Shown piece by piece: positions 17,944 to 63,242 of a stretch of 64,000 nt of DNA. The stretch's first letter is position 1; each line of letters starts with the position of its first letter. Made by a program: the position numbers and the translations under genes. The stretch is from a virus (taxonomy: Duplodnaviria > Heunggongvirae > Uroviricota > Caudoviricetes). The notes beneath the pieces are model-generated. The model was not told the origin of the DNA, searched no databases, and saw only the letters and a program-made list of their open reading frames with translations. The DNA lies in the IMG/VR virus record IMGVR_UViG_3300037245_002365; one strand, given 5' to 3'.

Positions 17944-18435
17944 ATGAATCTTTCCGAAGAAACAATAATTGAGAAAATCGTAGAACGGCTTTCAGAGTCA
18001 GAATCTATGGACTTTCCAGACCTATCTGAGAGAAGAATAATAGAATATAGTAAATGGCTCGGTGAACCAGTATTAACATACTTAAATATACCAGTACTAA
18101 ACGCTACAAAAGAAGTTAATATGTTACGCGGTTTGCTTACATATCGTAGCCATCATGAGATGTTTATCTTCGTACACGAAAAAGGTATACTTAGAACAGA
18201 GGCTATAATTGGCCCTGACACACTAATCTCCTTTAGAAATATACACTCTGCAGGTGATTCAGATAACTACCGCTATGAGTTTACATTACATACTAAAGAG
18301 CTTGACGTAATCAACACGTTCACTATAAAAGGTATAAATGAAGCTGAAGAGATGGGGAAGAGATTAGTAGCAATACGTACACAAATACGTAAGAATGAAA
18401 TAGAAGCCGGCAGAAGAAGTAGCTGGTGCATATAA
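17944..18435 (+). CDS. Hypothetical protein
   Basis: 163-aa ORF. Confidence 0.55.
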   Translation: MNLSEETIIEKIVERLSESESMDFPDLSERRIIEYSKWLGEPVLTYLNIPVLNATKEVNMLRGLLTYRSHHEMFIFVHEKGILRTEAIIGPDTLISFRNIHSAGDSDNYRYEFTLHTKELDVINTFTIKGINEAEEMGKRLVAIRTQIRKNEIEAGRRSSWCI

Positions 18436-42564: not shown

Positions 42565-42707
42565 CAAAATACTTAATATATAGCTATATTAAAATATGGT
42601 AACAAATGAACATAAATACGCCTCAGCGAATTTAACGCAAGATTTTAGTGGGAGAGACCCACTAGGAGTTTTGGTTACCTAAGTTTATACTTATTATTTT
42701 GTTAAAC

Positions 42708-42741
42708 AACCCCGGTAACCTCAAAAGTTCCGGGGTTTTTG
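42708..42741 (+). terminator. Rho-independent terminator just before the first tRNA
   Basis: Stem AACCCCGG/CCGGGGTT followed by a T run. Confidence 0.65.
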
Positions 42742-42763: not shown

Positions 42764-42837
42764 GTCTCAGTAGCTCAGTCTGGTAGAGCGCCGTCCCTCC
42801 AAGTCGGATGTCGCAGGTTCAAATCCTGTCTGGGACT
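42764..42837 (+). tRNA. tRNA, most likely Gly (anticodon TCC); an alternative reading of the loop gives Trp (CCA)
   Basis: Hand-folded. Acceptor GTCTCAG/CTGGGAC (one G-U), D-arm GCTC/GAGC, T-arm GCAGG-TTCAAAT-CCTGT. Anticodon stem CCGTC/GTCGG has one T-T mismatch. Loop is CCTCCAA. Confidence 0.65.
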
Positions 42838-45337: not shown

Positions 45338-45577
45338 ATGCTTGACAACAAAAACTTCACAACAATAGTCTATTATGCAGAAGACATAAAAAAGTGGGAA
45401 TATAAACTTACTACCGGCAAACTGATCCTACAAGATGGACGATGGTTTGTTGAAGGTGGGTTTACTATTTCTGGTGGAGCTACTACAGCTGCAAAAGCTT
45501 ATCGCTCAGCAAGAATAAGTTTAGGGCTCAGTAAGTTATATAATTTGCTTATATGGCTTTTGGACAAATACAGATAG
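45338..45577 (+). CDS. Hypothetical protein
   Basis: Starts at the ATG right after the previous stop. The upstream extension shown in the ORF track (from 45206) is not trusted. Confidence 0.45.
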   Translation: MLDNKNFTTIVYYAEDIKKWEYKLTTGKLILQDGRWFVEGGFTISGGATTAAKAYRSARISLGLSKLYNLLIWLLDKYR

Positions 45578-46056
45578 ATAAGAAAGATATGGACGAACAA
45601 AACACAAGATCGTACGATAGCACGAAAGACACCGTTGATCATATAAACAATGTACAAGAGTACCTTCTTTTGATGGCTACTAAATTGCTTGATCGAGGAT
45701 TAAATCATGATAGGTCAAAATTAGATGACCCTGAATTGGAAATATTCAATGAGTTTACTCCAAAGTTAAAGCAATTAACATTCGATAGTGATGAATATAA
45801 GAAATGTCGTGAAGAAATGGCACCAGCGTTAAACCACCATTATGCAAAGAACAGGCATCACCCTGAACACTTTGCTGAAGGGATAAATGATATGACGTTG
45901 ATTGACATTTTAGAGATGCTGTGTGACTGGAAAGCAGCCACACTTCGCCAAAATGATGGCAATCTTAGAAAGAGTCTTGATTCGGCTTCAAAACGATTTA
46001 ATATAGACACACAACTTAAGAAAATACTGTTAAATAGTATTGGGTTGTTTGACTAA
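45553..46056 (+). CDS. HD-domain phosphohydrolase
   Basis: H...NHDRSKL...HHYAKNRHHPEH...D gives the H/HD/H/H/D metal-ligand pattern. Confidence 0.5.
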   Translation: MAFGQIQIDKKDMDEQNTRSYDSTKDTVDHINNVQEYLLLMATKLLDRGLNHDRSKLDDPELEIFNEFTPKLKQLTFDSDEYKKCREEMAPALNHHYAKNRHHPEHFAEGINDMTLIDILEMLCDWKAATLRQNDGNLRKSLDSASKRFNIDTQLKKILLNSIGLFD

Positions 46057-46063
46057 GGTTTGA

Positions 46064-46104
46064 GAAGCAAGCAAAGTTTATTAATTATTTTGCTTGCTTT
46101 TCGA
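46064..46104 (+). terminator. Rho-independent terminator
   Basis: GAAGCAAGCAAAG...TTTGCTTGCTTTT. It overlaps the -35 region of the HNH promoter. Confidence 0.6.
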
Positions 46105-46122
46105 TTCACAATTGTTTATATT
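46094..46122 (+). promoter_or_regulatory. sigma70-like promoter of an HNH gene (TTGCTT-17-TATATT). The ATG lies 6 nt after the -10, so the mRNA is probably leaderless.
   Basis: The same architecture sits upstream of all four HNH paralogs. Confidence 0.55.
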
Positions 46123-46127
46123 TAAGT

Positions 46128-46709
46128 ATGAAAGTTAAATGTAAATACTGTGAAATAGAATTCGACAAGAGACCGGATCAAGTTAAAAAATACAAAAATC
46201 ATTTTTGTAGTAGATCACACGCCGCGTCTTATAATAATAAGATTCACCCAAAATGTAGTTTCGACGGTATTAAAAATGTCTACTGTTTAGATTGTGAAAA
46301 ACCACTTAAGCATAAAACTCACCCTAGAAAAAAATATTGCAATCAGCAGTGCCAAATGAGTTTTCAACACAAAGAGTACATCAGAAGATGGCTCATTGGG
46401 GAAGAAACGGGTAATAGGTGTAAGACTGAGGTATCGATTTCGAAACATGTACGTAGATGGATTTTTGAAAAATATGACAACAAATGTTGTAAATGTGGTT
46501 GGGATAAGATTAACACAACTACGAATAAAATACCACTACAAGTAAGTCATATTGATGGGAACCCTTATAATACAATACCAGAAAATTTAGAACTTATATG
46601 CCCAAATTGCCATTCTTTAACTCCTACGTTTGGAGGACTGAATACAGGTAACGGCAGAAAATTAGAGAGCAATAAGGAAAAATATAGAGCATCGGGCCAC
46701 TGGGTGTAG
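46128..46709 (+). CDS. HNH homing endonuclease (free-standing)
   Basis: Cys-rich CxxC pairs. HNH core ...HIDGNPYNT...NLELICPNCH. The last ~8 codons overlap tRNA-Asp. Confidence 0.7.
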   Translation: MKVKCKYCEIEFDKRPDQVKKYKNHFCSRSHAASYNNKIHPKCSFDGIKNVYCLDCEKPLKHKTHPRKKYCNQQCQMSFQHKEYIRRWLIGEETGNRCKTEVSISKHVRRWIFEKYDNKCCKCGWDKINTTTNKIPLQVSHIDGNPYNTIPENLELICPNCHSLTPTFGGLNTGNGRKLESNKEKYRASGHWV

Positions 46710-46761
46710 CCACCTCCCTGTCACGGAGGATATCAGGCCGGTTCGAACCCGGTATGCTCTG
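46686..46761 (+). tRNA. tRNA-Asp (GTC)
   Basis: Perfect acceptor AGAGCAT/ATGCTCT. Anticodon stem CCTCC/GGAGG with loop CTGTCAC. T-arm GCCGG-TTCGAAC-CCGGT. Short 3-bp D-stem and a 7-nt variable loop. Confidence 0.65.
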
Positions 46762-46803
46762 CGGGGTTGGCCGGTTACCCGTTGAATCGAAAAACGGCAT
46801 TTT

Positions 46804-46878
46804 GGGGATATAGTTTAAATGGGAAAACATTGCCCTTGCAAGGCAAAATTTCGAGTTCGAGCCTCGATTTCTCCACCA
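46804..46878 (+). tRNA. tRNA-Ala (TGC), with encoded CCA
   Basis: D-arm GTTT/AAAC. Anticodon stem TTGCC/GGCAA with loop CTTGCAA. T-arm TCGAG-TTCGAGC-CTCGA. Acceptor GGGGATA/TTTCTCC has one U-U mismatch. Confidence 0.65.
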
Positions 46879-46914
46879 AATTCAATAAAAACAATAATTT
46901 ATGAAGGAGATACT

Positions 46915-47091
46915 ATGTTTGTAAATTTAAATGCAATGACAGATGAAGCGTATCAAGCCTTCATGGAAAAGTATCAAGAAAAAGTATTCGGAATTATCAT
47001 TGAAGCAGAATTTGAAATGGTTGAGAAGAAAGAAACATTTAGAGATAAGATAGGAAAATTGGTAGAAACAATAAAATCAATTAGAAAGTAA
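46915..47091 (+). CDS. Small hypothetical protein
   Basis: AAGGAG RBS 7 nt upstream. The longer ORF starting at 46819 overlaps tRNA-Ala. Confidence 0.5.
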   Translation: MFVNLNAMTDEAYQAFMEKYQEKVFGIIIEAEFEMVEKKETFRDKIGKLVETIKSIRK

Positions 47092-47747
47092 TGAAGATTG
47101 TAGCGATTGCAGATACACATATGCTCCATAATGACTTGATGGTCCCCGAGGGTGACCTACTTATCCACGCAGGAGACATGTGTACATATGGTAGAGAAAA
47201 TGAAGCTAGAGAAACTGCCAAATGGTGGAAATCCTTACCCCACCCTCATAAAATCTATGTTCCAGGAAATCATGATGTATCAATATATGAAAATCGTAGT
47301 TTAAGAGAATTATATGAGGATGAAAATAGCCACGTCTTAATTGACGAGGCTCTAGAAATTGATGGGATTAAGTTTTGGGGTAGCCCATGGACGCCAGAGT
47401 TTTGTGGATGGGCATTTATGCTACAAAGGGGCGGAGACGTACTAGCAAACAATTGGGCTGCTATTCCTGATGACACTGACGTGTTAATTACCCATGGCCC
47501 ACGCTTTGGGTATGGAGATAGAAACGAAGAAAATCTTCCAGTTGGGTGTGAAGCACTAGCTTGGCGGCTAGAGCAAATGCCTGATTTGAAGTACCATATC
47601 TTCGGACACATCCATACAGATTATGGTATAAGAAGATTCAATAACACCTCTGTTATAAACGCTTCTATACATGAGGGTACGTGGAAACACCACGACTTTA
47701 CCCCACCTATTGTTTTTGAGTATGGAGAAGAACCCCATTATGGGTAA
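47091..47747 (+). CDS. Calcineurin-like metallophosphoesterase
   Basis: Motifs IADTH, GDMCTYG, GNHD, GH-H. Confidence 0.7.
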   Translation: MKIVAIADTHMLHNDLMVPEGDLLIHAGDMCTYGRENEARETAKWWKSLPHPHKIYVPGNHDVSIYENRSLRELYEDENSHVLIDEALEIDGIKFWGSPWTPEFCGWAFMLQRGGDVLANNWAAIPDDTDVLITHGPRFGYGDRNEENLPVGCEALAWRLEQMPDLKYHIFGHIHTDYGIRRFNNTSVINASIHEGTWKHHDFTPPIVFEYGEEPHYG

Positions 47748-47898
47748 GAAAAAAATAAAACCGCCTAAGTCAAAATCTTTGACTAAATATCCGATACCAC
47801 CTACTACAAGAGAGGAAGATACCTCGAAACACACTAAAAAAGAGCGGCGGGAAAATAAAAAAGATATGAAGAATATTGAAATTGATTCAGAATAATTG

Positions 47899-47981
47899 GC
47901 CCTGCAGCATTGTGGCATAAATGCGCTAAACTAAGCATGCCCATGGTTTAGAGATATCGGTTCGAGTCCGTTCAGGGTTCA
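47899..47981 (+). ncRNA. tRNA-like element with canonical acceptor, D and T arms but an oversized anticodon region
   Basis: Acceptor GGCCCTG/CAGGGTT. D-arm GCAT-x10-ATGC. T-arm ATCGG-TTCGAGT-CCGTT. A 6-bp stem CTAAAC/GTTTAG encloses a 14-nt loop. Confidence 0.35.
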
Positions 47982-47984
47982 AAA

Positions 47985-48292
47985 TTACCAGGGGACACAC
48001 AATGCATCTGAGTATGGATGGTAATTAACATACAAAAGGATGTAGCGCCCCACCTAACACCCGCAACGGGTGTCGAAGACGCCACGTTACCCACAGTGGC
48101 GCAACTATCTCAGCCGGACCGGGTCTAAGGCCCGGATAGCAGAGATAGATTCTCAGGCCGATATTGCCTGAAAGAAAGTAAAGGGTCAGCAACTGGCAAA
48201 CGGATGATATGGTTAACGCTCGACGTTATTAAAGTTTTGGATCGCTAAGACGCCTATCAGCCCGCCGGTTGTTGACCCTCACTACCTCTATT
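47985..48292 (+). ncRNA. Candidate structured non-coding RNA (GC-rich, many hairpins)
   Basis: No ORF. Hairpins ACACCCG-CAA-CGGGTGT, CGCCAC-x10-GTGGCG, CCGGG-TCTAAGG-CCCGG, and AATTACCA...TGGTAATT. GC content clearly above the flanks. Confidence 0.3.
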
Positions 48293-48365
48293 GAGCTGTA
48301 GCATAACTGGCAATGCACCGGTCTGTTAAACCGGGTTATAGGAGTTCGAAGCTCTTCGGCTCAGC
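48293..48365 (+). tRNA. tRNA-Asn (GTT)
   Basis: Acceptor TGAGCTG/CGGCTCA. D-arm GCAT-AACTGGCA-ATGC. Anticodon stem CCGGT/ACCGG with loop CTGTTAA. T-arm AGGAG-TTCGAAG-CTCTT. Confidence 0.7.
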
Positions 48366-48395
48366 AATAATTTTAACTTAAAAAATGGTGAAATA

Positions 48396-48671
48396 ATGGA
48401 AATAAACAGTACGAAAGACGGAAAATTTTATGTCAGGGATACAGAAACCGGCAGACTATTCCTAGTAGAACCACTAGGGTTTGACAAAGTAGGTTGGGGT
48501 GACATTGACCCTGCTACGAAAAAGGTTCAAGGTGATTACGGTCAGAAACATATAGGCTCAGTATCTGAGAAAAATAGTGTTGTAACAGAAGATAACGGAT
48601 TCAAAAATATTATAGACGTTGGTCCCGGCGAAAGCCCATTTGCAGCGATTGAAAAATTGCTAAAGAAATAA
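48396..48671 (+). CDS. Hypothetical protein
   Basis: 91-aa ORF. Confidence 0.55.
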   Translation: MEINSTKDGKFYVRDTETGRLFLVEPLGFDKVGWGDIDPATKKVQGDYGQKHIGSVSEKNSVVTEDNGFKNIIDVGPGESPFAAIEKLLKK

Positions 48672-48722
48672 AATTTGCGTTCACCTTAAATATGGTGTAT
48701 AATATATAGGGAGCGATAATAT

Positions 48723-49217
48723 ATGAAAAATTTAGATTTTACAAAGTTAGAAGTAAACTGTGATATGGACGGTGTACTAACAAACTTCGCTGGTTCATTT
48801 TTGAAGATATCAAATGACATTGAATGCGACGTTTATGAAAACACACAAGGCTCAGAGAAATTTTGGGAACTTATAGACAAAGAAGGGCTCGACTGGTGGG
48901 CTAATATGCCTTGGATGTCGGATGGAAAACTGCTTTGGTACTATATAGAAAATCTGAGACCCCATATTCTCTCTGCACCCGCAAAGAGATTGCCACAGAG
49001 TAGAGAAGGAAAAAAGATTTGGGTAAAACGTGAGTTAGGTAAAGTACCAGTTAGACTGGGAAAAGCCAAAGACAAACAACAATTCGCTCACGCGAATTGC
49101 ATACTTATAGATGATATGCAACGTAACATCAATCAGTGGCGCGATTCCGGAGGAGTTGGGATACTCCATACTTCAGCAGAAGATACCATAAGACAATTAA
49201 AAGCTTTGGGCCTTTAA
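48723..49217 (+). CDS. HAD-superfamily 5'(3')-nucleotidase-like protein
   Basis: HAD motif I, CDMDGVLTNF. Confidence 0.5.
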   Translation: MKNLDFTKLEVNCDMDGVLTNFAGSFLKISNDIECDVYENTQGSEKFWELIDKEGLDWWANMPWMSDGKLLWYYIENLRPHILSAPAKRLPQSREGKKIWVKRELGKVPVRLGKAKDKQQFAHANCILIDDMQRNINQWRDSGGVGILHTSAEDTIRQLKALGL

Positions 49218-49303
49218 GTAGAAGAAATAAGTCCTATGGGAATGACTATAAGCGAAACCGCCCTAAAGAGTTGAACAACGGATTCAAATATTGAAATAAT
49301 ATA

Positions 49304-49332
49304 TTGACTTTCGAGTCATTCTTGTTTATATT
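49304..49332 (+). promoter_or_regulatory. sigma70-like promoter of an HNH gene (TTGACT-17-TATATT), leaderless start
   Basis: Seen directly. The ATG at 49338 lies 6 nt after the -10. Confidence 0.6.
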
Positions 49333-49337
49333 TAAAT

Positions 49338-49832
49338 ATGAAAGTTAAATGTAAACATTGTGAAATAGAATTTGATAAAAAACCTAATCAAATAAAAAAA
49401 GATAAGAATAATTTTTGCTGCAGATCTCATGCTGCAATTTATAATAATAAGATGTACCAGAAGAGGGCACCAACTAAGTGGCGTTGTATGGATTGTGATA
49501 AAAAAGTAAGCCACGGATCAAAACGCTGCCAAGGCTGTAAACGAATAGATGCTCTTAAAATTTATAATTCTCACACTATAGAAGAAAAAGTATATAAAAA
49601 AGGCGATGCTTCTTTAAAATTTGTATATATACGCAAGCATGCGGGAATAGTTCTTGAGTTAGAAAATAGAAAAAAGAAGTGTGAGGCGTGTGAATGGGAT
49701 AAACATGTCCATGTAGCACATATAAAAGCATTAAGCAGTTTTGATCTAACAACAAAAATTGGTGTAGTAAATGCACCAGAAAATTTAAAGTATCTATGTC
49801 CCAATTGTCATTGGGAATTTGATCATAATTAG
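49338..49832 (+). CDS. HNH homing endonuclease (paralog of 46128)
   Basis: First ~50 nt about 90% identical to the 46128 gene (MKVKCKHCEIEFDK). HNH core CPNCHWEFDHN. Confidence 0.7.
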   Translation: MKVKCKHCEIEFDKKPNQIKKDKNNFCCRSHAAIYNNKMYQKRAPTKWRCMDCDKKVSHGSKRCQGCKRIDALKIYNSHTIEEKVYKKGDASLKFVYIRKHAGIVLELENRKKKCEACEWDKHVHVAHIKALSSFDLTTKIGVVNAPENLKYLCPNCHWEFDHN

Positions 49833-49835
49833 TAT

Positions 49836-49910
49836 GCTCGGTTCGTCTAGACAGGACTAGGACACCGGGTTTTCATCCCGGCAACACGGGATCGTAGCCC
49901 GTACCGAGTA
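49836..49910 (+). tRNA. tRNA-Glu (TTC)
   Basis: Acceptor GCTCGGT/ACCGAGT. Anticodon stem CCGGG/CCCGG with loop TTTTCAT. T-arm ACGGG-ATCGTAG-CCCGT. D-loop is long at 11 nt. Confidence 0.6.
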
Positions 49911-49932
49911 CAAATTCCAACCAACAAGTAAT

Positions 49933-50397
49933 ATGAGTAAAAAGGTAACTACCACTACGGTAGAAAAAGAAAGAACATCAGGATATAAATGGTCTTATGA
50001 AGTTTGGGAAAACCTCCCTGAAAATCAGATCGTTACAAAAAAAGACATTGGCAGCAAAATACAAGTTGCCGGACATTTACATCCTGATCCATATAAACTT
50101 AAAAAGATCGTAGAAGCAAACAAGAAAACACCATATAAAGAAAAGAGCATCATTGCCATGGATAACTATGGTACTGAAAGAACTTTCTATTATACTATGT
50201 GCAGACGGCACCCAAAAGTACTGGCTGAAGAGGCTAGACTAGCCAAAAAGAAGATGAAGAAAAGAAAAGTCAGATGCAAATTATGTGATGAACTTTTTCT
50301 TCGTATCAATGCACATTTAAAGAAAACTCATAAAATGACTCCAGAGGAGTATCAAATTGAATGTAAGACAAGAAATAAAAAGCACACAGATAAATAA
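49933..50397 (+). CDS. Basic hypothetical protein
   Basis: 154-aa Lys-rich ORF. Confidence 0.55.
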   Translation: MSKKVTTTTVEKERTSGYKWSYEVWENLPENQIVTKKDIGSKIQVAGHLHPDPYKLKKIVEANKKTPYKEKSIIAMDNYGTERTFYYTMCRRHPKVLAEEARLAKKKMKKRKVRCKLCDELFLRINAHLKKTHKMTPEEYQIECKTRNKKHTDK

Positions 50398-50650
50398 TTC
50401 TGTGCAAGAATTAAGTTCCAAAATAAAGTCCAGATTAATTGAAAAAGGACGTGGAGCTTTTGTGAGTACTCATGAAATTCTAGGTATCATAACTGAAGAA
50501 TATTATGAATTAGTGGATGCAGTGAGATCAGATGTCGTAGATGATGTCCGATCAGAGTTATTAGATATAGCCGTAGGTTGTATTTTTGGCATAGCCTGTA
50601 TCAACGAAAACACCATGAAACAGCAAAACGAAGAGGAAGTGGGTAAGTAA
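50357..50650 (+). CDS. MazG-like NTP pyrophosphohydrolase domain protein
   Basis: ILGIITEEYYELVDAVRSD...DELLDIA has the EExxE...D pattern of MazG. Confidence 0.45.
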   Translation: MNVRQEIKSTQINNSVQELSSKIKSRLIEKGRGAFVSTHEILGIITEEYYELVDAVRSDVVDDVRSELLDIAVGCIFGIACINENTMKQQNEEEVGK

Positions 50651-51133
50651 ATGGCAGATAAGTTTAAATTAAAAGATCCAGTAAAACTGGTAAGCACCAG
50701 AGGTAAACCTATAACAAAGGAAAATACTGGAACTATTACTAGGGTAAGGTCTGTGAGTAGTGGTTACTACACATCAAACCGTGAATATACAGTAACATTC
50801 AATTCAGGTAAAGCAAACACTTATAAAGCGGGACAACTGGATTTATTAATTACTAAAGACAAAGGTGATATAGCAAGTATCAGTAGAAAAGAAGTTACGG
50901 ATGGATTAAATACCGTAATGATAAAAATAAAAGAGAAAACTGATGAAATGAAGATAATTCAAGATCAGATTGCTTTTATGGATTTATCCAATGTTGATGA
51001 ATTAAATCTAAATTTGTACAAATCTTATAAAATAGCACAAATGCTTTCTCAGAAAGAAGAGTGCAGTGAGTTAGAAATGGCATCCGCTATACAAGATCTA
51101 ATGTATAACGAACAAAGCCCATACACTGACTAA
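50651..51133 (+). CDS. Hypothetical protein
   Basis: 160-aa ORF. Confidence 0.55.
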   Translation: MADKFKLKDPVKLVSTRGKPITKENTGTITRVRSVSSGYYTSNREYTVTFNSGKANTYKAGQLDLLITKDKGDIASISRKEVTDGLNTVMIKIKEKTDEMKIIQDQIAFMDLSNVDELNLNLYKSYKIAQMLSQKEECSELEMASAIQDLMYNEQSPYTD

Positions 51134-51171
51134 AAAATTAGTCTCGCTCAGAAAGCTGGGCGAGATAAATA

Positions 51172-51348
51172 CGGCGGGTAGCTCAAATTGGAGAGCAGCC
51201 ACTAAAGGAGCTTACTGAACGGATCGTTAATAACGAGGGCGATCTAAGGGTAGGGGTTACCGAATATACGGACGGATGTCCAAAACTCGTGGTAACTTTA
51301 AGCAGAGATTAGTGAGCACGGATGCTGGTTCGAGTCCAGCCCCGGCGA
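51172..51348 (+). ncRNA. tRNA-like element: 5' acceptor plus D-arm, and 3' T-arm plus acceptor, separated by about 120 nt
   Basis: CGGCGGG-TA-GCTC-AAATTGGA-GAGC at 51172-51197. GCTGG-TTCGAGT-CCAGC-CCCGGCG-A at 51324-51348. Confidence 0.3.
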
Positions 51349-51420
51349 CAAGTTCCCAAAGTACCTCTCCGCGGCTCAGTGTGAGGACTAGCGATGGAAG
51401 TTCGCTCTTTGGGATAATTA

Positions 51421-51541
51421 GGGCCTAATAGCATAACGGATAATGCACTTGATCAGCGTTGAGCCAGAAGTCTGAAATTGTGTACAAAGTTTAGAATAAA
51501 CTTCTGAGGGAAATAGATGGGTTCGACTCCCATTGGGTCCA
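51421..51541 (+). ncRNA. tRNA-like element with an enlarged anticodon region
   Basis: Acceptor GGGCCTA/TGGGTCC. D-arm GCAT-x8-ATGC. T-arm ATGGG-TTCGACT-CCCAT. The internal 7-bp stem CAGAAGT/ACTTCTG encloses a 28-nt loop. Confidence 0.3.
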
Positions 51542-51961
51542 CAAATTACAAGCGGTAGGCTTAGAAGTAGCCATCCTTAATAAGTGAGGTAGCGTACCGA
51601 TGGTGGCCTTGCGCTGCTTGAGGGATGCATTGCGCTTTGCTTCTTGGGTGTAACAACATGCTTGTTAAAATTGGATTAAATAATGTCAGGTAGGGGCCTG
51701 ACGGATACATATAGCACCGGTATGGTGAATAGGAACGCCCGAACGATCAGTAAATATCCGGTATCCCCGGAGGCGTACAAAATGCCTATCAATCGGTTGA
51801 AAGTCTAAGGAAGTGAACTAACGAATAGATCTTCTGGGATGTCGGCGGAAACTGAAAAGTTAGTAGTCAGGTTGTAAATAAAACGTTAATATAAAATACA
51901 ACTGAACGAGTTATATGTCAAAATGTCGTCTTTAGGCATTATTTAATCTGATTAAAATTGA

Positions 51962-52035
51962 CGCGGGGTAGGGCAGTTTGGTAGCCCGCCAGCCTCATAA
52001 GCTGGAGGTCGCCGGTTCAAATCCGGCCCCCGCTA
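51962..52035 (+). tRNA. tRNA-Met (CAT)
   Basis: D-arm GGGC/GCCC. Anticodon stem CCAGC/GCTGG with loop CTCATAA. T-arm GCCGG-TTCAAAT-CCGGC. Acceptor has a C1-U72 mismatch. CCA is encoded. Confidence 0.7.
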
Positions 52036-52061
52036 CCAAGTAGTAAATAGATTCAAACAAT

Positions 52062-52135
52062 AGCGGGGTAGAGCAGTCCAGTAGCTCGTCAGTCTCATAA
52101 ACTGAAGGTCGTGGGAGCGAAGCCCACCCCCGCTA
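52062..52135 (+). tRNA. tRNA with anticodon CAT (Met, or Ile2 by lysidine)
   Basis: Perfect acceptor AGCGGGG/CCCCGCT. Anticodon stem TCAGT/ACTGA with loop CTCATAA. T-arm GTGGG-AGCGAAG-CCCAC has an unusual T-loop. Confidence 0.7.
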
Positions 52136-52157
52136 CTAAATTAATAAAGAGGTAGAT

Positions 52158-52838
52158 ATGACAAAACGTAGAAGCAAAGCATTACGCCTTAAAAAGAAAC
52201 AGAAAGAAGTACTGGATTTTGACCGTCAACTCACAGAGATATACAAAAGGCAAAACAATCCTAGAAGAGTCAAATTAGATAAACCACATAATGTTGGCTG
52301 GCAAAAAATATGGCATATTCGTAAAGATCGTGGATTGCTTGAAGAAGAAATAGACGCTATCCAAAATTACTTGGACACCTGCACCTATTTACACTGGGCA
52401 AGAAAAAAATCAAGATTGACGGCGGAAGTACCAAGGGTTAAAATCTATCTGACTAAAAAAGACTTAAAAGCTTTACCAACAAAAAAGGTTAAATTACTTT
52501 TTGATACAGACTGGATGGCATTCCTTGCAAACAAACGTTATCGAATAAGTGACTATGCTTACAGACAATATTTCTGGACAGAGATAATACATTACCGAGT
52601 TAATGAAGCTGCCGAGTTTGATCCAAGGCTCGAAAGTAGGAAGTACTTTTTGCATAAGAGGCTCTATGGCGAAGGCCAGTGGAGAAAGTTCGCCGGTCGA
52701 GACAATGGCGGCGGTAAAGACCACCACTGTTTAGGCGAAAGCCGTTGTGCAGAGCACTACCATAGAAAGGCTGATAAAAAAATAGCTAGAGTAGAAATTA
52801 ACGAAGCAGTACAAGATATAATCGCACCGATTGAATAG
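52158..52838 (+). CDS. Hypothetical basic protein (226 aa)
   Basis: ORF with a GAGG RBS. Confidence 0.6.
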   Translation: MTKRRSKALRLKKKQKEVLDFDRQLTEIYKRQNNPRRVKLDKPHNVGWQKIWHIRKDRGLLEEEIDAIQNYLDTCTYLHWARKKSRLTAEVPRVKIYLTKKDLKALPTKKVKLLFDTDWMAFLANKRYRISDYAYRQYFWTEIIHYRVNEAAEFDPRLESRKYFLHKRLYGEGQWRKFAGRDNGGGKDHHCLGESRCAEHYHRKADKKIARVEINEAVQDIIAPIE

Positions 52839-52859
52839 GTGATGGCTTGCAGTAATAAT

Positions 52860-53185
52860 GGATCGTACCCCGAGCTAACAAGGTTAGCATGGCCCTGTAC
52901 TACGATGATTATTACACCACTTGTGGGCAAACTAGATAGCAAAACAGGGCCAAAGAATTAAACATGACAGTAGGACATATTCGCAGATAATGCTGAGGCT
53001 CAGGATGTCTATATAATCCCGTCCGCTGGCAGTAGCAATTAAAAATAGGTGACACTCCTTTGGCAAGGGGTGGTGTACTAGTAAACGGTGGAATAACATA
53101 TCTCGCGGGGTCTTATGCCACCCCGAGGCAACGGATTAGGAGTGCCAACTCTATGCCCTGCCTCGGCTTGATGCCACAATTAAAT
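52860..53185 (+). ncRNA. Candidate structured non-coding region
   Basis: No convincing ORF. Hairpins GCTAAC-AAG-GTTAGC, GGCCCTG...CAGGGCC, CTGAGG-CTCAG, GGGGTGG...CCACCCC, CCGAGGCA...TGCCTCGG. Confidence 0.25.
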
Positions 53186-53260
53186 GCCCTCGTAGCTTTA
53201 ATTGGACAGAGCGCCGCGCTACGGACGCGGAGGTTGGGAGTTCGAATCTCTCCGAGGGTG
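53186..53260 (+). tRNA. tRNA-Arg (ACG)
   Basis: Acceptor GCCCTCG/CGAGGGT. Anticodon stem CCGCG/CGCGG with loop CTACGGA. T-arm GGGAG-TTCGAAT-CTCTC. Confidence 0.8.
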
Positions 53261-53274
53261 CAAAAGAATTAAGG

Positions 53275-53397
53275 GGAACGCTGGCAAGGAGTTAATATTA
53301 ATAAACCTCTACATTATCAGAATGTGGCGAGCCGGGCGATCTGATCACTCGCTGTCCGATGGACTATTGGGAGTTCGACTCTCTTCTTCCCCACCAA
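53275..53397 (+). ncRNA. tRNA-like 3' end (GGGAG-TTCGACT-CTCTT-CTTCCCC-A-CCA) with a possible far-upstream acceptor GGGGAAC
   Basis: T-arm and 3' CCA seen directly. 122 nt is too long for a canonical tRNA. Confidence 0.25.
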
Positions 53398-53424
53398 TTA
53401 TTATAGACTTAAAATTATAAGACT

Positions 53425-53452
53425 TGATTTTAAGTCTAAATATGTTTATATT
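53425..53452 (+). promoter_or_regulatory. sigma70-like promoter of an HNH gene (TTGATT-16-TATATT), leaderless start
   Basis: Seen directly. ATG at 53458. Confidence 0.55.
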
Positions 53453-53457
53453 TAGGT

Positions 53458-53973
53458 ATGAATACAAAAATATGTACAAAATGTACCAAAGAAAAGTCTC
53501 TAGAAGACTTCAACTTTAAAAATAAAACAAAAGGTATTAAACAGGCACAGTGTAAAGAATGTCAATCCATATACTTTAAAAAACACTATAGCAAAAACGT
53601 AGAAAAATACTGTAAGCGAGCCAGAACCTCTAATCCAGCAGCAAAAAAAAGAAATAGAGAGTTTATTATATCCTATTTGCTAGAACACTCCTGTGTAGAT
53701 TGTGAAGAAACTGATATTGTTGTATTGGATTTTGATCACGTTATTGGTGAAAAGCGTGAAACGGTTTCTACTATGGCAAGATCGCCTTATAGTATTAAAT
53801 CCATAAAAGAAGAAATAGGTAAATGTGAGATTCGTTGTGCAAATTGTCACCGAAGAAGACATTCCAAAGAAAATGGTTTTTACAAAGAAGGCGTCGTAGC
53901 TCCAAAGGTAGAGCGAAAGTCTGAAAAACTTTGCGTTGGTGGTTCGAATCCGCCCGATGCCACAAACCAATAA
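53458..53973 (+). CDS. HNH homing endonuclease. Its last ~28 codons read through tRNA-Phe.
   Basis: CTKCTKEK...CKECQ...DHVIGEKRET...CANCHRRRH. Confidence 0.7.
   Translation: MNTKICTKCTKEKSLEDFNFKNKTKGIKQAQCKECQSIYFKKHYSKNVEKYCKRARTSNPAAKKRNREFIISYLLEHSCVDCEETDIVVLDFDHVIGEKRETVSTMARSPYSIKSIKEEIGKCEIRCANCHRRRHSKENGFYKEGVVAPKVERKSEKLCVGGSNPPDATNQ
53890..53962 (+). tRNA. tRNA-Phe (GAA), lying inside the 3' end of the HNH ORF
   Basis: Acceptor GGCGTCG/CGATGCC. D-arm GCTC/GAGC. Anticodon stem AAAGT/ACTTT with loop CTGAAAA. T-arm GGTGG-TTCGAAT-CCGCC. Confidence 0.8.
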
Positions 53974-53978
53974 ATAAA

Positions 53979-54586
53979 ATGACAGATGAAATAAAAAGAT
54001 CGAATTATATGTGGTTGGGAGAATTACGGTCCTGGAATAAACCTGGACTAAAGTTAAACCAATTACAAGGCACCCCTATAAGGAAGTCCTTAGAGAGGGT
54101 GTAAGATTAGTAGAATCCTTAGGCATATTCACTTGGCTCTCAGCAGGCACCGCTTTAGGAATTTATAGAGACGGTGGCCCAATAGAAGTAGGAGATTGGG
54201 ATTTAGACATAGGTATTTATGGTCATGACTTTACTGACGATATTGAATTGTTGCTTAATAAGCATGGATTTGATACAGTAAGAGCTGTTGATAAAATTAA
54301 ACCTATGCAGAGATGCTACCAGAAAAACAATGTAATATTAGACATAATGTGCTACCACAAAGATACTGATGGTACATATGTTAATTATGTTGATTGGTCT
54401 GAAGTTCGCAAACCTGCAAAATTACTAGAAAACTTTGATGATATTGATTACGATGGCAAGACCTATAACCTTCCTTTGGCTCCAGATTATTTTGAATGGA
54501 GATATGGAAAAGACTGGGAAACACCCAAAGACGGTTTCAAAGGTATATATGGTGAAGCCATGAGTGTGACAGAAGAAACTAATTAA
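53979..54586 (+). pseudogene. LicD/fukutin-like nucleotidyltransferase-fold gene, split between two reading frames (frameshifted or pseudogene)
   Basis: ATG at 53979 gives a 41-aa frame-0 piece that ends at 54104. The -1 frame is open from 54041 to 54586 with no ATG or GTG before the TTG at 54248. That frame encodes GTALGIYRDGGPIEVGDWDLDIGIY, which is like the LicD GxLLGAVRHGGFIPWDDDID motif. Confidence 0.45.
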
Positions 54587-54601
54587 AAAAGAAACGAGAT
54601 A

Positions 54602-54826
54602 TTGATGTGTGACGCACAAAAAGAACTTATGGAACAAATTCATGGAATACAGCCTTGTGATGTTAATGTGTGTAATAATCCAGTACGAAAATTTTCTCCT
54701 AAAGTTAAAGCTGGAATTGGCAGAAAAGGTAAAAGATGGAGCCGAGTATGTGGAGAATGCTACAAAGAAATAAGTCAGCGACAACTTTATATATCTTTAG
54801 CAAACTTGGTTAAACGCAGATTTTAA
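54602..54826 (+). CDS. Cys-rich small protein
   Basis: MCDAQKE...CDVNVCNN...CGECY. Confidence 0.45.
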   Translation: MMCDAQKELMEQIHGIQPCDVNVCNNPVRKFSPKVKAGIGRKGKRWSRVCGECYKEISQRQLYISLANLVKRRF

Positions 54827-54835
54827 TAGTAAGCC

Positions 54836-54863
54836 CCTGTAGCTGAGTCCGGTTTAGCGCTTT
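54836..54863 (+). pseudogene. 5' fragment of a tRNA (acceptor plus D-arm), a partial duplicate of tRNA-Thr
   Basis: GCCCCTGTAGCTGAGTCCGGTTTAGCGC versus tRNA-Thr GCCCCTGTAACTCAGTCCGGTTAGAGTAGC at 55471. Confidence 0.5.
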
Positions 54864-54877
54864 TAATATAAAAGTAC

Positions 54878-54906
54878 TTGACAAATGAGCTATATATGTC
54901 TATATT
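54878..54906 (+). promoter_or_regulatory. Consensus sigma70 promoter TTGACA-17-TATATT for an HNH gene
   Basis: Seen directly. ATG 5 nt after the -10. Confidence 0.65.
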
Positions 54907-54911
54907 TAAGT

Positions 54912-55469
54912 ATGGATAAAAAAATACTTGAAATATATATAGAGCAGGGTATGTCAACATATCAAATTGCTAAAGAAGAAAATTGCGGACAAACCAACGT
55001 AAGGCATTGGCTGAATAAATATGATCTTTCTACTAAATATGTTAGAAAGAAAACTATTAGACCGATTCATATTTGTAAAAACTGCGACAAAACATTAGAT
55101 CACAATATTAGAAGTCAAAGGGTTTACTGCTCTACAAATTGTCATCAAAAATATATGGCAAAAGAAAGAGATAAGCGTATAGAAACTGCTGGGGGTTTGC
55201 CAGATAATATGGCTATTAGAACTCTTAAAACCTATATGTTAAAAAAACGCGGAGTTGTCTGTCAAATTTGTGAACTAACAGAATGGAATAATAAACCAAT
55301 ACCTCTAGTTTTAGATCATATAAATGGAGATTCAACTAATAGTAGTTTTGAAAATTTACGATTAGTTTGTGGAAATTGTGATATGCAATTACCAACATAT
55401 AAGGGTAAAAATGCAGGAAACGGAAGACATAGTCGAAGACAACGATATAAAGACGGAAAATCTTATTAA
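54912..55469 (+). CDS. HNH homing endonuclease (inserted beside tRNA-Thr)
   Basis: MDKKILE... (ATG follows the conserved TATATTTAAGT). CKNC...CSTNCHQKY...DHINGDSTN...CGNCD. Confidence 0.7.
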   Translation: MDKKILEIYIEQGMSTYQIAKEENCGQTNVRHWLNKYDLSTKYVRKKTIRPIHICKNCDKTLDHNIRSQRVYCSTNCHQKYMAKERDKRIETAGGLPDNMAIRTLKTYMLKKRGVVCQICELTEWNNKPIPLVLDHINGDSTNSSFENLRLVCGNCDMQLPTYKGKNAGNGRHSRRQRYKDGKSY

Positions 55470-55470
55470 T

Positions 55471-55545
55471 GCCCCTGTAACTCAGTCCGGTTAGAGTAGC
55501 TGATTTGTAATCAGCCTGTCGTTGGTTCGAATCCAATCGGGGGCT
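55471..55545 (+). tRNA. tRNA-Thr (TGT)
   Basis: Acceptor GCCCCTG/CGGGGGC. D-arm ACTC/GAGT. Anticodon stem GCTGA/TCAGC with loop TTTGTAA. T-arm GTTGG-TTCGAAT-CCAAT. Confidence 0.8.
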
Positions 55546-55564
55546 CAAATAAAGGAAAAGAAAA

Positions 55565-55834
55565 ATGAGTTATACACCAGCAGAACAACAACAAATACTT
55601 GAAGATGCTAAAAAAGTGGTAGATGTTTTAAAGAAAGCTGTTGATCTATTTAAAGATAACACACCTCTAACTGACGAAGAAAAAGATGCAGTTAATAAAA
55701 AATTGATAGAAGATTGTGTTAGTCCAGAACACAGTCCACCCATGCATAGAGTATATGAAGTTGGAACACACGAGCATGTATGCCCATCTTGCAGACAAGT
55801 AACCAAGTTTTTTGTACCAATGGTAAGATGTTAA
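55565..55834 (+). CDS. Hypothetical protein with a CPSC motif
   Basis: 89-aa ORF with a GGAAAAG RBS. Confidence 0.5.
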   Translation: MSYTPAEQQQILEDAKKVVDVLKKAVDLFKDNTPLTDEEKDAVNKKLIEDCVSPEHSPPMHRVYEVGTHEHVCPSCRQVTKFFVPMVRC

Positions 55835-55851
55835 ATAACCAAAAATAAATA

Positions 55852-56067
55852 ATGAAAAGATGTGATAGGCTCGGATGTGGAAGAACCATTTTCCCTTCGA
55901 GGGGCTGGGGAAGAATAGCCCTAAAGATAACTGATAAACTACTAATTTTAGAGCTATGTAATTCATGCTACAATGAAATAACTCCCGAAGACTTTGGAGT
56001 AGAAGTAATTTTAAAACAAGGTAAAAATGGCGAAGAAGATATCGCAGTTTACGAAAAAAATGTATAA
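55852..56067 (+). CDS. Small Cys-containing protein
   Basis: 71-aa ORF. Confidence 0.4.
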   Translation: MKRCDRLGCGRTIFPSRGWGRIALKITDKLLILELCNSCYNEITPEDFGVEVILKQGKNGEEDIAVYEKNV

Positions 56068-57175: not shown

Positions 57176-57249
57176 CGGGGTATGGCGCAGTCCGGTAGCG
57201 CACTCGCTTTGGGAGCGAGGGGCCGCAGGTTCGAATCTTGCTACTCCGA
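57176..57249 (+). tRNA. tRNA-Pro (TGG)
   Basis: Acceptor CGGGGTA/TACTCCG. D-arm GCGC/GCGC. Anticodon stem CTCGC/GCGAG with loop TTTGGGA. T-arm GCAGG-TTCGAAT-CTTGC. Confidence 0.8.
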
Positions 57250-57255
57250 CATTAT

Positions 57256-57331
57256 GGTGATTGTAGCTCAGTGGTAGAGCGCTCGGTTGTGGCCCGAGAG
57301 GTCGAGGGTTCGAGACCCTCCTTTCACCCCA
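57256..57331 (+). tRNA. tRNA-His (GTG) with a genomically encoded G-1 and encoded CCA
   Basis: Extra 5' G opposite discriminator C73. Anticodon stem CTCGG/CCGAG with loop TTGTGGC. T-arm GAGGG-TTCGAGA-CCCTC. Acceptor has two U-U mismatches. Confidence 0.7.
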
Positions 57332-61541: not shown

Positions 61542-63242
61542 ATGTCGAGACAAGTACTCATTAAAAATGTTGGAAATGTGACATTGACAGATAATAACTT
61601 TGTAGGTGCTGGCGGCGAAGCTGCTGTGCATAGACAAGGTAATCATGCAATAAAGGTTTATCATGACGAAGGCAAAACATTACCTGAAAAGAAAATAATC
61701 GAATTAGGTAATATTAGGGCTACAAATGTATTAAAGCCTTTACATTCTGTATACGATACCAAGACTAATAATCTTATCGGATACGCAATGCAGTATGTTG
61801 ATGGTACACATCCAATATGTAAACTGTTTACAAAATCGTTCAGAAACAAATACAATATAGATCACAGAATGATATACAAGTTAGTCAACTCTATACAGGA
61901 GACTGCTGCTAGTATTCATTTCGATAAGTGTTTAATAGTAGACTTCAATGAAATGAACCTACTAACTTCCAGTGACTTCAAAATACCATACTTTATTGAT
62001 GTGGATAGTTATCAGACTCCCTCATTCCCGGCAACGGCTTTGATGGAATCAATACGAGACCACACTTCCCCTCTGGGGAAGTTCAGTATTTATACTGATT
62101 GGTTTGCCTTCGGTATCTTGGCATTCCAGCTATATATTGGTATCCACCCCTTCAAGGGTAGACATCCAAACTATAAACCTGGAGATTGGCAGCAACGGAT
62201 GGAAGACGGTATATCTGTGTTTAACAAAGATGTACAACTTCCGCCAGTATGCAATCCCTTTGCTATAATACCCCCACGACATAAAGATTGGTTTGAAGAT
62301 ATGTTCGTTAATAATAACCGTAGTGAACCACCACGGATGGACTCAAGCGAACCAATAACCATGGAAGTAAAACGTGTTGTAATAAATTCAACAAATCTAT
62401 TTGACATCAAAGAGATTGTTGAGTTGGAATCGAAGTTCGATATAGTTACTTCTGCTTACAGCTTTGTAGGACAGAAGCACTATGTTACGCAGGATCGAAT
62501 CTATGCGGGTAAACGTCTCATACAGGACGGTTTGGCCAAAGAGAAAAACGATAAGATACTGCTAGCTTCGTCACCAACCAGTAGACCTGTCATATGCAAA
62601 TTAAAAGACAAATTCCTATCCATGTATGAAATGGACGGTGGATATCTTGGAAAAATACCTTGCAAAGGTGCAACGGTAATTTCCGGACGGCTCCTTGCTG
62701 TATCAACCATGGGTTTGACTGAAGTTGAGTTTAAAGAATATGGCGGTAAACTGACTTATTTTGAAAAGGTGGGGTCAGGAGCTGGTGAGCATTCTAGGTT
62801 ATTTGACGGAGTACTCTGTCAAAATCTATTAGGCAAACCATTCCTAACTGTACCCACAGAAAGCGGGTTCGCTTCCTACAAAACAGTAGAGTTAGAAGAC
62901 TATAGAGTCATAGACATGAAACTGGAACGGAACATCTGTGTTCTAATGGCTGAAAAGAAAGGAATCTATTATAGGTTCGTATTCATTTTCGACCATAAAA
63001 AACACACCTATGATCTAAGAATTACAAAAGACGTTCCTTTTGACGCAATTAACTTTACAGTTACTAGGAAAGGTATCTGCATTCTATCGACTGAAAACAA
63101 CCAATTGGAACTCTTTAGAGATAACCGCGCCGTTAAGGTTGTGGAGAACTCTCCAATAGATTCTTCAATGACATTGTTTAGTTTTGACAATACTGTGTAT
63201 TTCGCACATGAAAACAAAGTAATGTCAATTACAATGAAATGA
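61542..63242 (+). CDS. Ser/Thr protein kinase-like protein with a C-terminal extension (566 aa)
   Basis: Gly loop VGAGGEAAVH, then AIKVY (VAIK Lys). HFDKCLIVDFNEMN looks like the catalytic loop and IDVDSY is DFG-like. The C-terminal ~280 aa is unassigned. Confidence 0.55.
   Translation: MSRQVLIKNVGNVTLTDNNFVGAGGEAAVHRQGNHAIKVYHDEGKTLPEKKIIELGNIRATNVLKPLHSVYDTKTNNLIGYAMQYVDGTHPICKLFTKSFRNKYNIDHRMIYKLVNSIQETAASIHFDKCLIVDFNEMNLLTSSDFKIPYFIDVDSYQTPSFPATALMESIRDHTSPLGKFSIYTDWFAFGILAFQLYIGIHPFKGRHPNYKPGDWQQRMEDGISVFNKDVQLPPVCNPFAIIPPRHKDWFEDMFVNNNRSEPPRMDSSEPITMEVKRVVINSTNLFDIKEIVELESKFDIVTSAYSFVGQKHYVTQDRIYAGKRLIQDGLAKEKNDKILLASSPTSRPVICKLKDKFLSMYEMDGGYLGKIPCKGATVISGRLLAVSTMGLTEVEFKEYGGKLTYFEKVGSGAGEHSRLFDGVLCQNLLGKPFLTVPTESGFASYKTVELEDYRVIDMKLERNICVLMAEKKGIYYRFVFIFDHKKHTYDLRITKDVPFDAINFTVTRKGICILSTENNQLELFRDNRAVKVVENSPIDSSMTLFSFDNTVYFAHENKVMSITMK

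Follow-up and report, generated by a model that had tools for sequence, protein, structure and literature searches.

Candidate homing-type HNH cassettes with predicted start-codon-adjacent promoters at tRNA junctions of an uncultured jumbo phage

Endonuclease genes that overlap neighboring tRNA genes are already known from the heg genes of phage T5 and from gp160 of Mycobacterium phage Dandelion, and the four HNH endonuclease genes described here (HNH1 to HNH4) are arranged likewise. They lie on the + strand of a 64,000-nucleotide (nt) stretch of the Caudoviricetes record IMGVR_UViG_3300037245_002365, the whole of which is called the window below and supplies all positions. The HNH endonucleases of the T5 tRNA region are F-TflI and F-TflII together with F-TflIV (Akulenko et al. 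2004, cited by both PMC2330249 and PMC10644984). As in the window, the HNH genes of T5 (NC_005859) are free-standing, lie inside a tRNA cluster, and are encoded on the same strand as the tRNAs, with the 3ʹ ends of hegC, hegD, and T5.069 overlapping the next tRNA by 14–24 nt. The presence of HNH genes varies among T5-like phages, and in the T5-like phage HdH2, the coding sequence of an HNH1 homologue (~35% identity) ends on the first base of tRNA-Thr. With HNH1 as the tblastn query, homologues appeared in phage records from Escherichia (78) and Salmonella (25), the listed ones being T5-like. The T5 annotation, however, has no promoter directly before the heg starts, whereas each cassette in the window has predicted −35 and −10 elements and no Shine-Dalgarno (SD) sequence, and the phage carrying the four genes is an unrelated, uncultured jumbo phage of ~228 kb.

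In phage T4, homing within a tRNA cluster has been studied by experiment with SegB, the flanking tRNA genes being co-converted (PMC2330249). Processing of the next tRNA has been proposed to cut the segB mRNA between the last sense codon and the stop codon, limiting expression, and such a limit has also been proposed for the F-Tfl genes of T5 (PMC2330249). Unlike the nucleases of the window, SegB has a GIY-YIG fold rather than an HNH fold, and its gene has no promoter near the 5ʹ end, being expressed from a long tRNA precursor transcript (PMC2330249). For I-TevI, I-TevII, I-TevIII, and mobE of T4, a late or middle promoter lies directly upstream of the gene, inside a hairpin that masks the ribosome binding site, and the sole translatable transcript is the one made from this promoter (PMC2330249). 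The window resembles this type of control in having a putative promoter of its own at each open reading frame (ORF) and differs from it in that the promoter has sigma-70 −35 and −10 elements and that a leaderless mRNA is proposed instead of the unmasking of a ribosome binding site.

Homologues of HNH3 (42–44% identity) are found in the tRNA arrays of two actinobacteriophages, as gp160 of Dandelion and gp142 of Streptomyces phage Mildred21, both of which are HNH/endonuclease VII-like. An entire tRNA-Trp is embedded in Dandelion gp160, just as tRNA-Phe is in HNH3, and the Mildred21 gene lies between two complete copies of tRNA-Leu(UAG), the full-length counterpart of the partial duplication of tRNA-Thr in the window. 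Both are known from annotation and, unlike the cassettes of the window, have promoter regions without any sequence relationship to those described below. With regard to the start codon, the cI mRNA made from PRM of phage lambda is leaderless, with the layout TAGATT-N6-ATG and no SD sequence. The window resembles it in having a −10 hexamer close to the ATG and differs in its N5 spacing and in the gene class, homing endonucleases. A full-text literature search on leaderless phage homing endonucleases turned up only a loosely worded conjecture, in a paper on mycobacteriophages. The window is set apart by a strictly conserved promoter, predicted to be of the sigma-70 type, that lies 5 nt from the ATG and is common to unrelated nuclease families. 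The best explanation for the locus as a whole, which we consider likely, is that free-standing homing-type HNH cassettes occupy the spacers directly 5ʹ of tRNA genes.

HNH1 (46128..46709, 193 amino acids (aa)) was predicted to consist of two Zn-ribbon modules and an HNH domain, and its last 24 nt overlap a tRNA-Asp called by ARAGORN. HNH2 (49338..49832, 164 aa) stops 3 nt before tRNA-Glu(UUC) (49836..49911), which lies directly 3ʹ of it. HNH3 (53458..53973, 171 aa) runs through the whole of tRNA-Phe(GAA) (53890..53963) and stops 10 nt past it, and HNH4 (54912..55469, 185 aa), in which a helix-turn-helix-like N-terminus is joined to an HNH domain of the HNH1 type, stops 1 nt before the intact tRNA-Thr(UGU) (55471..55546). 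A first-pass annotation, made by a model from the sequence without database searches, had described insertion at tRNA genes, and indeed each of the four ORFs either stops no more than 3 nt short of a tRNA or extends into one.

When compared with PHROG, HNH1, HNH4, and HNH3 matched 'HNH endonuclease' families with E values of 3e-16, 4e-21, and 1e-34 (phrog_2255), respectively, while HNH2 did so with merely 1.7e-5. In the alignment of the HNH1 family, which comprises 1,431 matches, C120, C123, H141, N153, C158, and C161 were invariant and H162 nearly so. The corresponding CxxC...H...N...CxxCH motif was also readable in HNH2 and HNH3, and HNH4 has D for the final H. The AlphaFold model of HNH1 had a mean predicted local distance difference test (pLDDT) score of 83.9, and its top PDB matches were the HNH domains of ScoMcrA, EcoKMcrA, and Cap5 (probability 0.99–1.0, E 0.006–0.05); a PDB sequence search gave nothing significant. 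Sequence and model together support the assignment of the four genes to HNH-type (His-Me finger) nucleases. The genes had been called four paralogues, which is wrong for HNH3. HNH1 and HNH4 have the HNH domain in common (31% identity over 135 aa, E 2e-18), whereas the comparison of HNH1 with HNH3 was not significant (E 0.029) and HNH3 matched a PHROG family of its own, indicating by sequence that HNH3 is of a different family from the other three.

At the four start codons, the window contains four copies of the 18-mer TGTTTATATTTAAGTATG at no more than 1 mismatch (46113, 49323, 53443, and 54897), each ending in the ATG of an HNH ORF and none located elsewhere, compared to a chance expectation of 0.29 even with 3 mismatches allowed. 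The shared upstream block of the first-pass annotation was thus recovered. The putative HNH1 promoter (46094..46127) consists of a −35 element TTGCTT (46094–46099), a 17-nt spacer, a −10 element TATATT (46117–46122), and the discriminator TAAGT. For HNH2, the elements are TTGACT (49304–49309) and TATATT (49327–49332); for HNH3, a hairpin precedes TTGATT (53424–53429) and TATATT (53447–53452), with the ATG at 53458; and for HNH4 (54878..54911), they are TTGACA (54878–54883), a 17-nt spacer, TATATT (54901–54906), and TAAGT, amounting to 11/12 matches to the consensus. The spacer was exactly 17 nt and the distance from the −10 element to the ATG exactly 5 nt in all four, in line with the 16–17 bp and 5–6 nt claimed at first. 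Sites on the + strand of the window that scored 10–11/12 with TATATT as the −10 element numbered just three, namely the HNH2 promoter, the HNH4 promoter, and a site at 42561. None of the four HNH genes has an SD motif, compared to ~59% of the + strand ORFs in the window that do. An exact minus-strand match to a shorter 14-nt pattern at 18077–18090 was set aside, as it lies inside a + strand gene and is followed by no ORF.

Five related contigs (L151, L152, L153, L238, and L239) were recovered via the top HNH1 homologues and carry six more cassettes. Where they could be aligned, their syntenic genes and conserved non-coding stretches were ~67–86% nt identical to the window, and the ~75 nt 5ʹ of the HNH1 ATG (46054–46127) were homologous to the region upstream of the cassette L153a (75.7% nt). 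In all ten cassettes (the four of the window and L151, L152, L153a, L153b, L238, and L239), TTG at −35, the 17-nt spacer, TATATT, the 5 nt, and the ATG were kept, upholding the proposal of sigma-70-like promoters belonging to the cassettes. The mean pairwise identities of the −10 element, the −35 element, the discriminator, and the spacer were 1.00, 0.77, 0.81, and 0.50, respectively, a pattern that points to a selected promoter at a locked distance from the ATG. As HNH3 and HNH4 have the same promoter before unrelated N-termini and unrelated downstream coding sequences, this conservation would not be a matter of simple shared ancestry. The L238 cassette is antisense to every neighbor and therefore must be expressed, if at all, from its own promoter. 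Among HNH3 homologues, the nearest of which are 43–53% identical, none was close enough for its promoter to be compared as that of an orthologue. Hairpins upstream of HNH1 and HNH3 were considered as terminators and rejected, since they lack a T-run and have no conserved counterpart in either L151 or L153.

Each cassette would accordingly bring its own host-type (sigma-70-like) promoter, and, with the ATG 5 nt away and no SD sequence, the sole translatable transcript from that promoter should therefore start at the A of the AUG. Judging by this geometry, we lean slightly toward leaderless translation of the HNH mRNAs. Alternatively, the promoter might serve the downstream tRNA, with transcription starting at or after the G of the ATG, and the HNH protein, if made, would come from upstream read-through and S1-type, SD-independent initiation at the AU-rich block. 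We regard this as unlikely. It agrees with the AU-rich composition of the upstream block, with the tRNA found directly after every cassette of the window without a terminator between them, and with the 5 nt from the −10 element to the A, one less than in the canonical leaderless layout and than in distant family members, which show 6 nt (L172, L190, L214, L215, L221, L230, and L232). However, the spacing to the ATG is invariant in 10 of 10 cassettes, which would serve no purpose in a tRNA promoter, L151, L152, L153b, L238, and L239 retain the promoter without a tRNA directly after the cassette, and sense read-through is improbable for the antisense cassette of L238.

The relatives also showed where cassettes are missing. 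In comparison with L239, HNH2 corresponds to an insertion of ~615 nt (49218..49835), the empty site in L239 being formed by the 159-aa orthologue of the window's 164-aa gene, which stops 6 nt before tRNA-Glu. The HNH3 cassette (53397..53889, ~490 nt) is absent from L153, in which a tRNA-like element is followed by tRNA-Phe after a 4-nt spacer. At the HNH4 site, L238 has only 5 nt between tRNA-Phe and tRNA-Thr. Conversely, L152 and L153 have a cassette and one ORF between tRNA-Pro and tRNA-His, which in the window (57176..57331) are 6 nt apart and represent the empty site, and L239 has a cassette after tRNA-Asn. The tRNA-like element at the left border of the HNH3 site (53273..53396, + strand, 124 nt) is 78.6% nt identical to L153 2402–2529 and has an acceptor-like stem (GGGGAAG/CTTCCCC), a T-arm with GGAGTTCGACTCTC, and CCACCA encoded at its 3ʹ end; neither ARAGORN nor Rfam called a tRNA there. 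The comparison with relatives lacking the insertions, suggested in the first-pass annotation as a check, thus gave empty sites at three of the four positions (in L153, L238, and L239), and the same HNH genes were not seen at unrelated loci, the cassettes of the relatives lying at other tRNA junctions. Read from aligned sequences, such sporadic occupancy at tRNA junctions is how free-standing homing endonuclease genes show up when genomes are compared, and we think it very likely that the HNH genes are mobile cassettes at tRNA junctions with promoters of their own.

The tRNA alleles next to the cassettes were compared as well. The tRNA-Phe of the window, which is linked to HNH3, differs from the allele common to L153 and L238 (63% identity to that of L153), and the tRNA-Thr genes of the window and L153, both HNH-linked, have the same acceptor and T arms, unlike that of L238, which has no HNH gene there. 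This co-variation of tRNA allele and cassette is weak evidence for co-conversion. If, on the other hand, the HNH genes were domesticated and fixed parts of the tRNA island, for example, excluding competing phages or maintaining or recombining the tRNA cluster, occupancy would hardly vary between close relatives (70–80% nt) at every comparable junction, nor would the N- and C-terminal modules be mosaic. We find domestication quite improbable, even though the link to tRNA clusters is very old and extends across T5-like and T4-like phages, actinophages, and jumbo phages, and one activity underlies both marker exclusion and homing.

A mosaic structure was evident between HNH1 and HNH2, in which a 38-aa N-terminal Zn-ribbon is nearly identical while the nuclease domains have diverged, leaving 37% identity overall. 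The nucleotide identity of the two genes was 93%, 83%, and 79% over the first 30, 60, and 120 nt, respectively, and 70% over the 40 nt upstream. It had been put at about 90% over the first ~60 nt and taken for a recent duplication or homing event; the measured 83% belongs to a shared 5ʹ module, promoter plus Zn-ribbon, set on diverged nuclease domains. L153a is chimeric, its 5ʹ 200 nt resembling HNH1 and HNH2 (76–82% nt) and its 3ʹ part resembling HNH4 (77% nt). From these sequence comparisons, the cassettes appear to exchange modules, with HNH1, HNH2, and cassettes of the relatives having a common promoter and Zn-ribbon and differing nuclease domains. That the upstream block is a functionless inheritance from a recent cassette duplication is very improbable: the high identity at the 5ʹ end of HNH1 and HNH2 would fit it, but the two genes are too different overall, HNH3 and HNH4 carry the same block before unrelated coding sequences, and the block is conserved with the logic of a promoter (−10 element complete, spacer at half, distances fixed).

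At the 3ʹ side, the first-pass annotation held that the tRNA sequence encodes the C-termini of two enzymes. The ORFs of HNH1 and HNH3 do enter tRNA calls, but the tails so encoded are non-homologous. Residues 174–193 of the HNH1 model, including the tRNA-encoded part, were disordered (pLDDT <50), and HNH3 homologues end at residue 142–143, ahead of the 27 residues that tRNA-Phe contributes. The 144 aa of HNH3 that are conserved have no stop codon of their own. Because the tail is disordered in the HNH1 model and lies beyond the end of the HNH3 homologues, the tRNA-encoded C-termini are, as far as sequence and model indicate, incidental tails and not a functional part of the enzymes. The tRNA-Asp(GUC) overlapped by HNH1 (46686..46762) is atypical and was called by ARAGORN alone, with a D-stem of 3 bp, a variable region of 7 nt, and a minimum-energy fold that is not a cloverleaf, while the Rfam tRNA model failed to detect it with E values of up to 10 allowed. 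This may be a tRNA that has degenerated or a pseudo-tRNA, and the overlap can be likened to that of hegD with the tRNA-Gln2 pseudogene of T5. Among 93 loci with HNH1 homologues, tRNAs were found in 82, the stop codon fell within −37 to +14 nt of the start of a same-strand tRNA in 36, and ~31 directly adjoin tRNA-Thr(UGU). The homologues from IMG/VR are distant (≤45% over long matches) and informed the tRNA association, not the promoter.

Because there is no terminator between the ORFs and the tRNAs, transcription should run on into the tRNA, and the cassette would double as a tRNA promoter. RNase P, acting at the tRNA 5ʹ end, would then cut the mRNA just past the stop codon for HNH2 and HNH4 or before it for HNH1 and HNH3, whose stop codons lie at or beyond the RNase P site of the adjacent tRNA by sequence geometry. 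For the latter two, a non-stop message and low nuclease expression would result, as in the proposal for T4 segB. Control of the HNH genes by tRNA processing is a serious possibility, to which we would give slightly less than even chances. In a co-infecting relative, the nucleases would presumably cleave the allele of the same tRNA junction that has no HNH gene, and repair would copy the cassette together with the linked tRNA allele. More tentatively still, and with the odds rather against it, we propose that a portable sigma-70-type promoter with a leaderless start (TTGnnn-17-TATATT-5-ATG) is common to unrelated HNH families in one jumbo-phage clade, independent of orientation and surroundings, with nuclease output tied to tRNA maturation. 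If this were true, the element would pay its way as a tRNA promoter while its own toxic product was kept scarce.

Several points weigh against homing-type cassettes expressed and spread in this manner. Escherichia coli RNA polymerase usually prefers to start 7–8 nt from the −10 element, the A of the ATG is just 6 nt past it, and a start at the G could yield untranslatable RNA. All matches to the Pfam families HNH, HNH_2, and HNH_3 were below the gathering scores. No relative covering the HNH1 site was found; the neighboring DUF5662 gene (45553–46056), followed as a lead to an empty HNH1 site, is widespread at ≤58% identity and led to no such relative. The link between tRNA allele and cassette rests on three genomes, and, with tRNA-Asp being doubtful, it may be that HNH1 overlaps no processed tRNA. 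With these reservations, the homing-type cassettes offer a clean comparison for following the turnover of homing endonucleases at the tRNA junctions of an uncultured jumbo phage, with occupied and empty sites defined to a few nt. The fixed geometry of promoter and ATG offers a simple candidate for the leaderless expression of a selfish nuclease, and an ORF that passes through a whole tRNA is an extreme case for the older view in which the expression of homing endonucleases is held down by tRNA processing. In annotation work, ORFs entering tRNAs can be taken as a recurrent and real feature of phage tRNA islands, and their tRNA-encoded tails should not be taken as functional protein.

Upstream of HNH4 lies a 28-nt 5ʹ fragment of tRNA-Thr (54833..54860, + strand), which comprises the 5ʹ strand of the acceptor stem and the complete D-arm and is truncated where the HNH4 cassette begins. 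Its existence, length, and location upstream of the HNH gene had been noted correctly, while its start is 54833 and not 54836. It is the sole tRNA fragment of such kind in the window and, over 26 nt, showed 2 mismatches to the tRNA-Thr of L153, compared to a chance expectation of 0.00 such matches. Over its length, it was identical to the tRNA-Thr of L153, the intact copy in the window, and the tRNA-Thr of L238 at 24/28, 20/28, and 16/28 positions, respectively. Standard homing produces no target duplication, and one-sided repair has been described for T4 intron homing. The fragment had been explained as a target duplication left by homing, but one-sided or illegitimate repair fits better with a fragment that is closer to the L153 allele than to the adjacent copy. 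The resident tRNA-Thr would have been reduced to a stump when a module of HNH4 and tRNA-Thr entered with homology on the downstream side alone. Among ~30 loci, one more 5ʹ tRNA fragment was found upstream of a nuclease gene (15 nt of tRNA-Ala in L194), and the fragment was therefore rejected as a general rule and regarded as an occasional by-product.

The promoter was also followed in more distant sequences. In the wider HNH family, a −10-like hexamer lay 4–8 nt before an ATG without an SD sequence at 14/77 loci, compared to 16/243 control ORFs, and in several other members TATAAT or TATACT precedes the ATG by 6 nt, again without an SD sequence. In T4-like homologues of HNH1 and HNH4 from IMG/VR (L085–L092), the late-promoter motif TATAAATA is located in a hairpin (GTAGACC...GGTCTAC) directly before the ATG, the classic layout of T4 homing endonuclease genes, and these HNH genes overlap tRNA-Thr(UGU) by ~8 nt. 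A promoter adjacent to the start codon seems to recur in the HNH1 family, each time in a version suited to the phage lineage. When IMG/VR was scanned for exact copies of TGTYTATATTTARRTATG, 47 single matches were obtained, none of them in front of an HNH gene. In an unrelated phage lineage from IMG/VR (L107, L114, L124, and L142), TTGGAT-17-TATATT-TAGGT-ATG, with the identical 18-mer, precedes a 132–135-aa protein with an HExxH motif, so a promoter design that looks leaderless by sequence also occurs outside HNH genes.

The window is part of a 228,091-bp JGI metagenome contig (sample 3300043172, Ga0484852_0000003). The HNH genes are located in a tRNA island at 42.7–57.4 kb of the window, with 12 tRNAs called by ARAGORN, two more by Rfam, and several GC-rich non-coding blocks between them. 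No close deposited relative was found; a megablast search with 46000–56000 against 50,697 phage records returned a single 65-nt tRNA-like match, and the 566-aa protein encoded at 61542–63242 matched solely huge uncultured phages at 33–34% identity. The GC-rich stretches between tRNAs at 47985–48290, 51550–51960, and 52840–53185 are 300–400 nt long and have no ORF and no Rfam match, and the segment 53041–53179 was 85.6% identical to L238 2079–2217, whereas the neighboring coding DNA was less so (~70%). These stretches probably encode structured RNAs that are stable, similar to what the annotation of the T5 tRNA region lists as 'tRNA-like stable RNAs with unknown functions'. When introns were allowed, ARAGORN predicted a tRNA-Leu(GAG) (51172–51349) whose anticodon loop carries a 98-nt insertion and a tRNA-Met(CAU) (51421–51542) with a 27-nt insertion, and, at a lower threshold, a tRNA-Met (47898–47980) with a 9-nt insertion; the Rfam tRNA score for 47906–47980 was 31 bits. 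Group I introns need more length than these insertions offer. The calls may be false.

At 42561, TTGACA-18-TATATT-AAAAT-ATG forms a fifth promoter of the HNH-cassette design, with 11/12 consensus matches. It precedes merely a 28-aa ORF (42596–42682), followed by a strong terminator-like hairpin (~42711–42741) and tRNA-Gly at 42764, and this unit could be a small leaderless gene, a small RNA, or the relic of a lost cassette. Finally, L151 contains at 989–1064 a tRNA with the anticodon CUA, labeled tRNA-Pyl by ARAGORN, which adjoins the orthologue of the 566-aa gene of the window. This tRNA is a potential amber suppressor, and TAG might be recoded in the clade; the stop codon of HNH2 is TAG.

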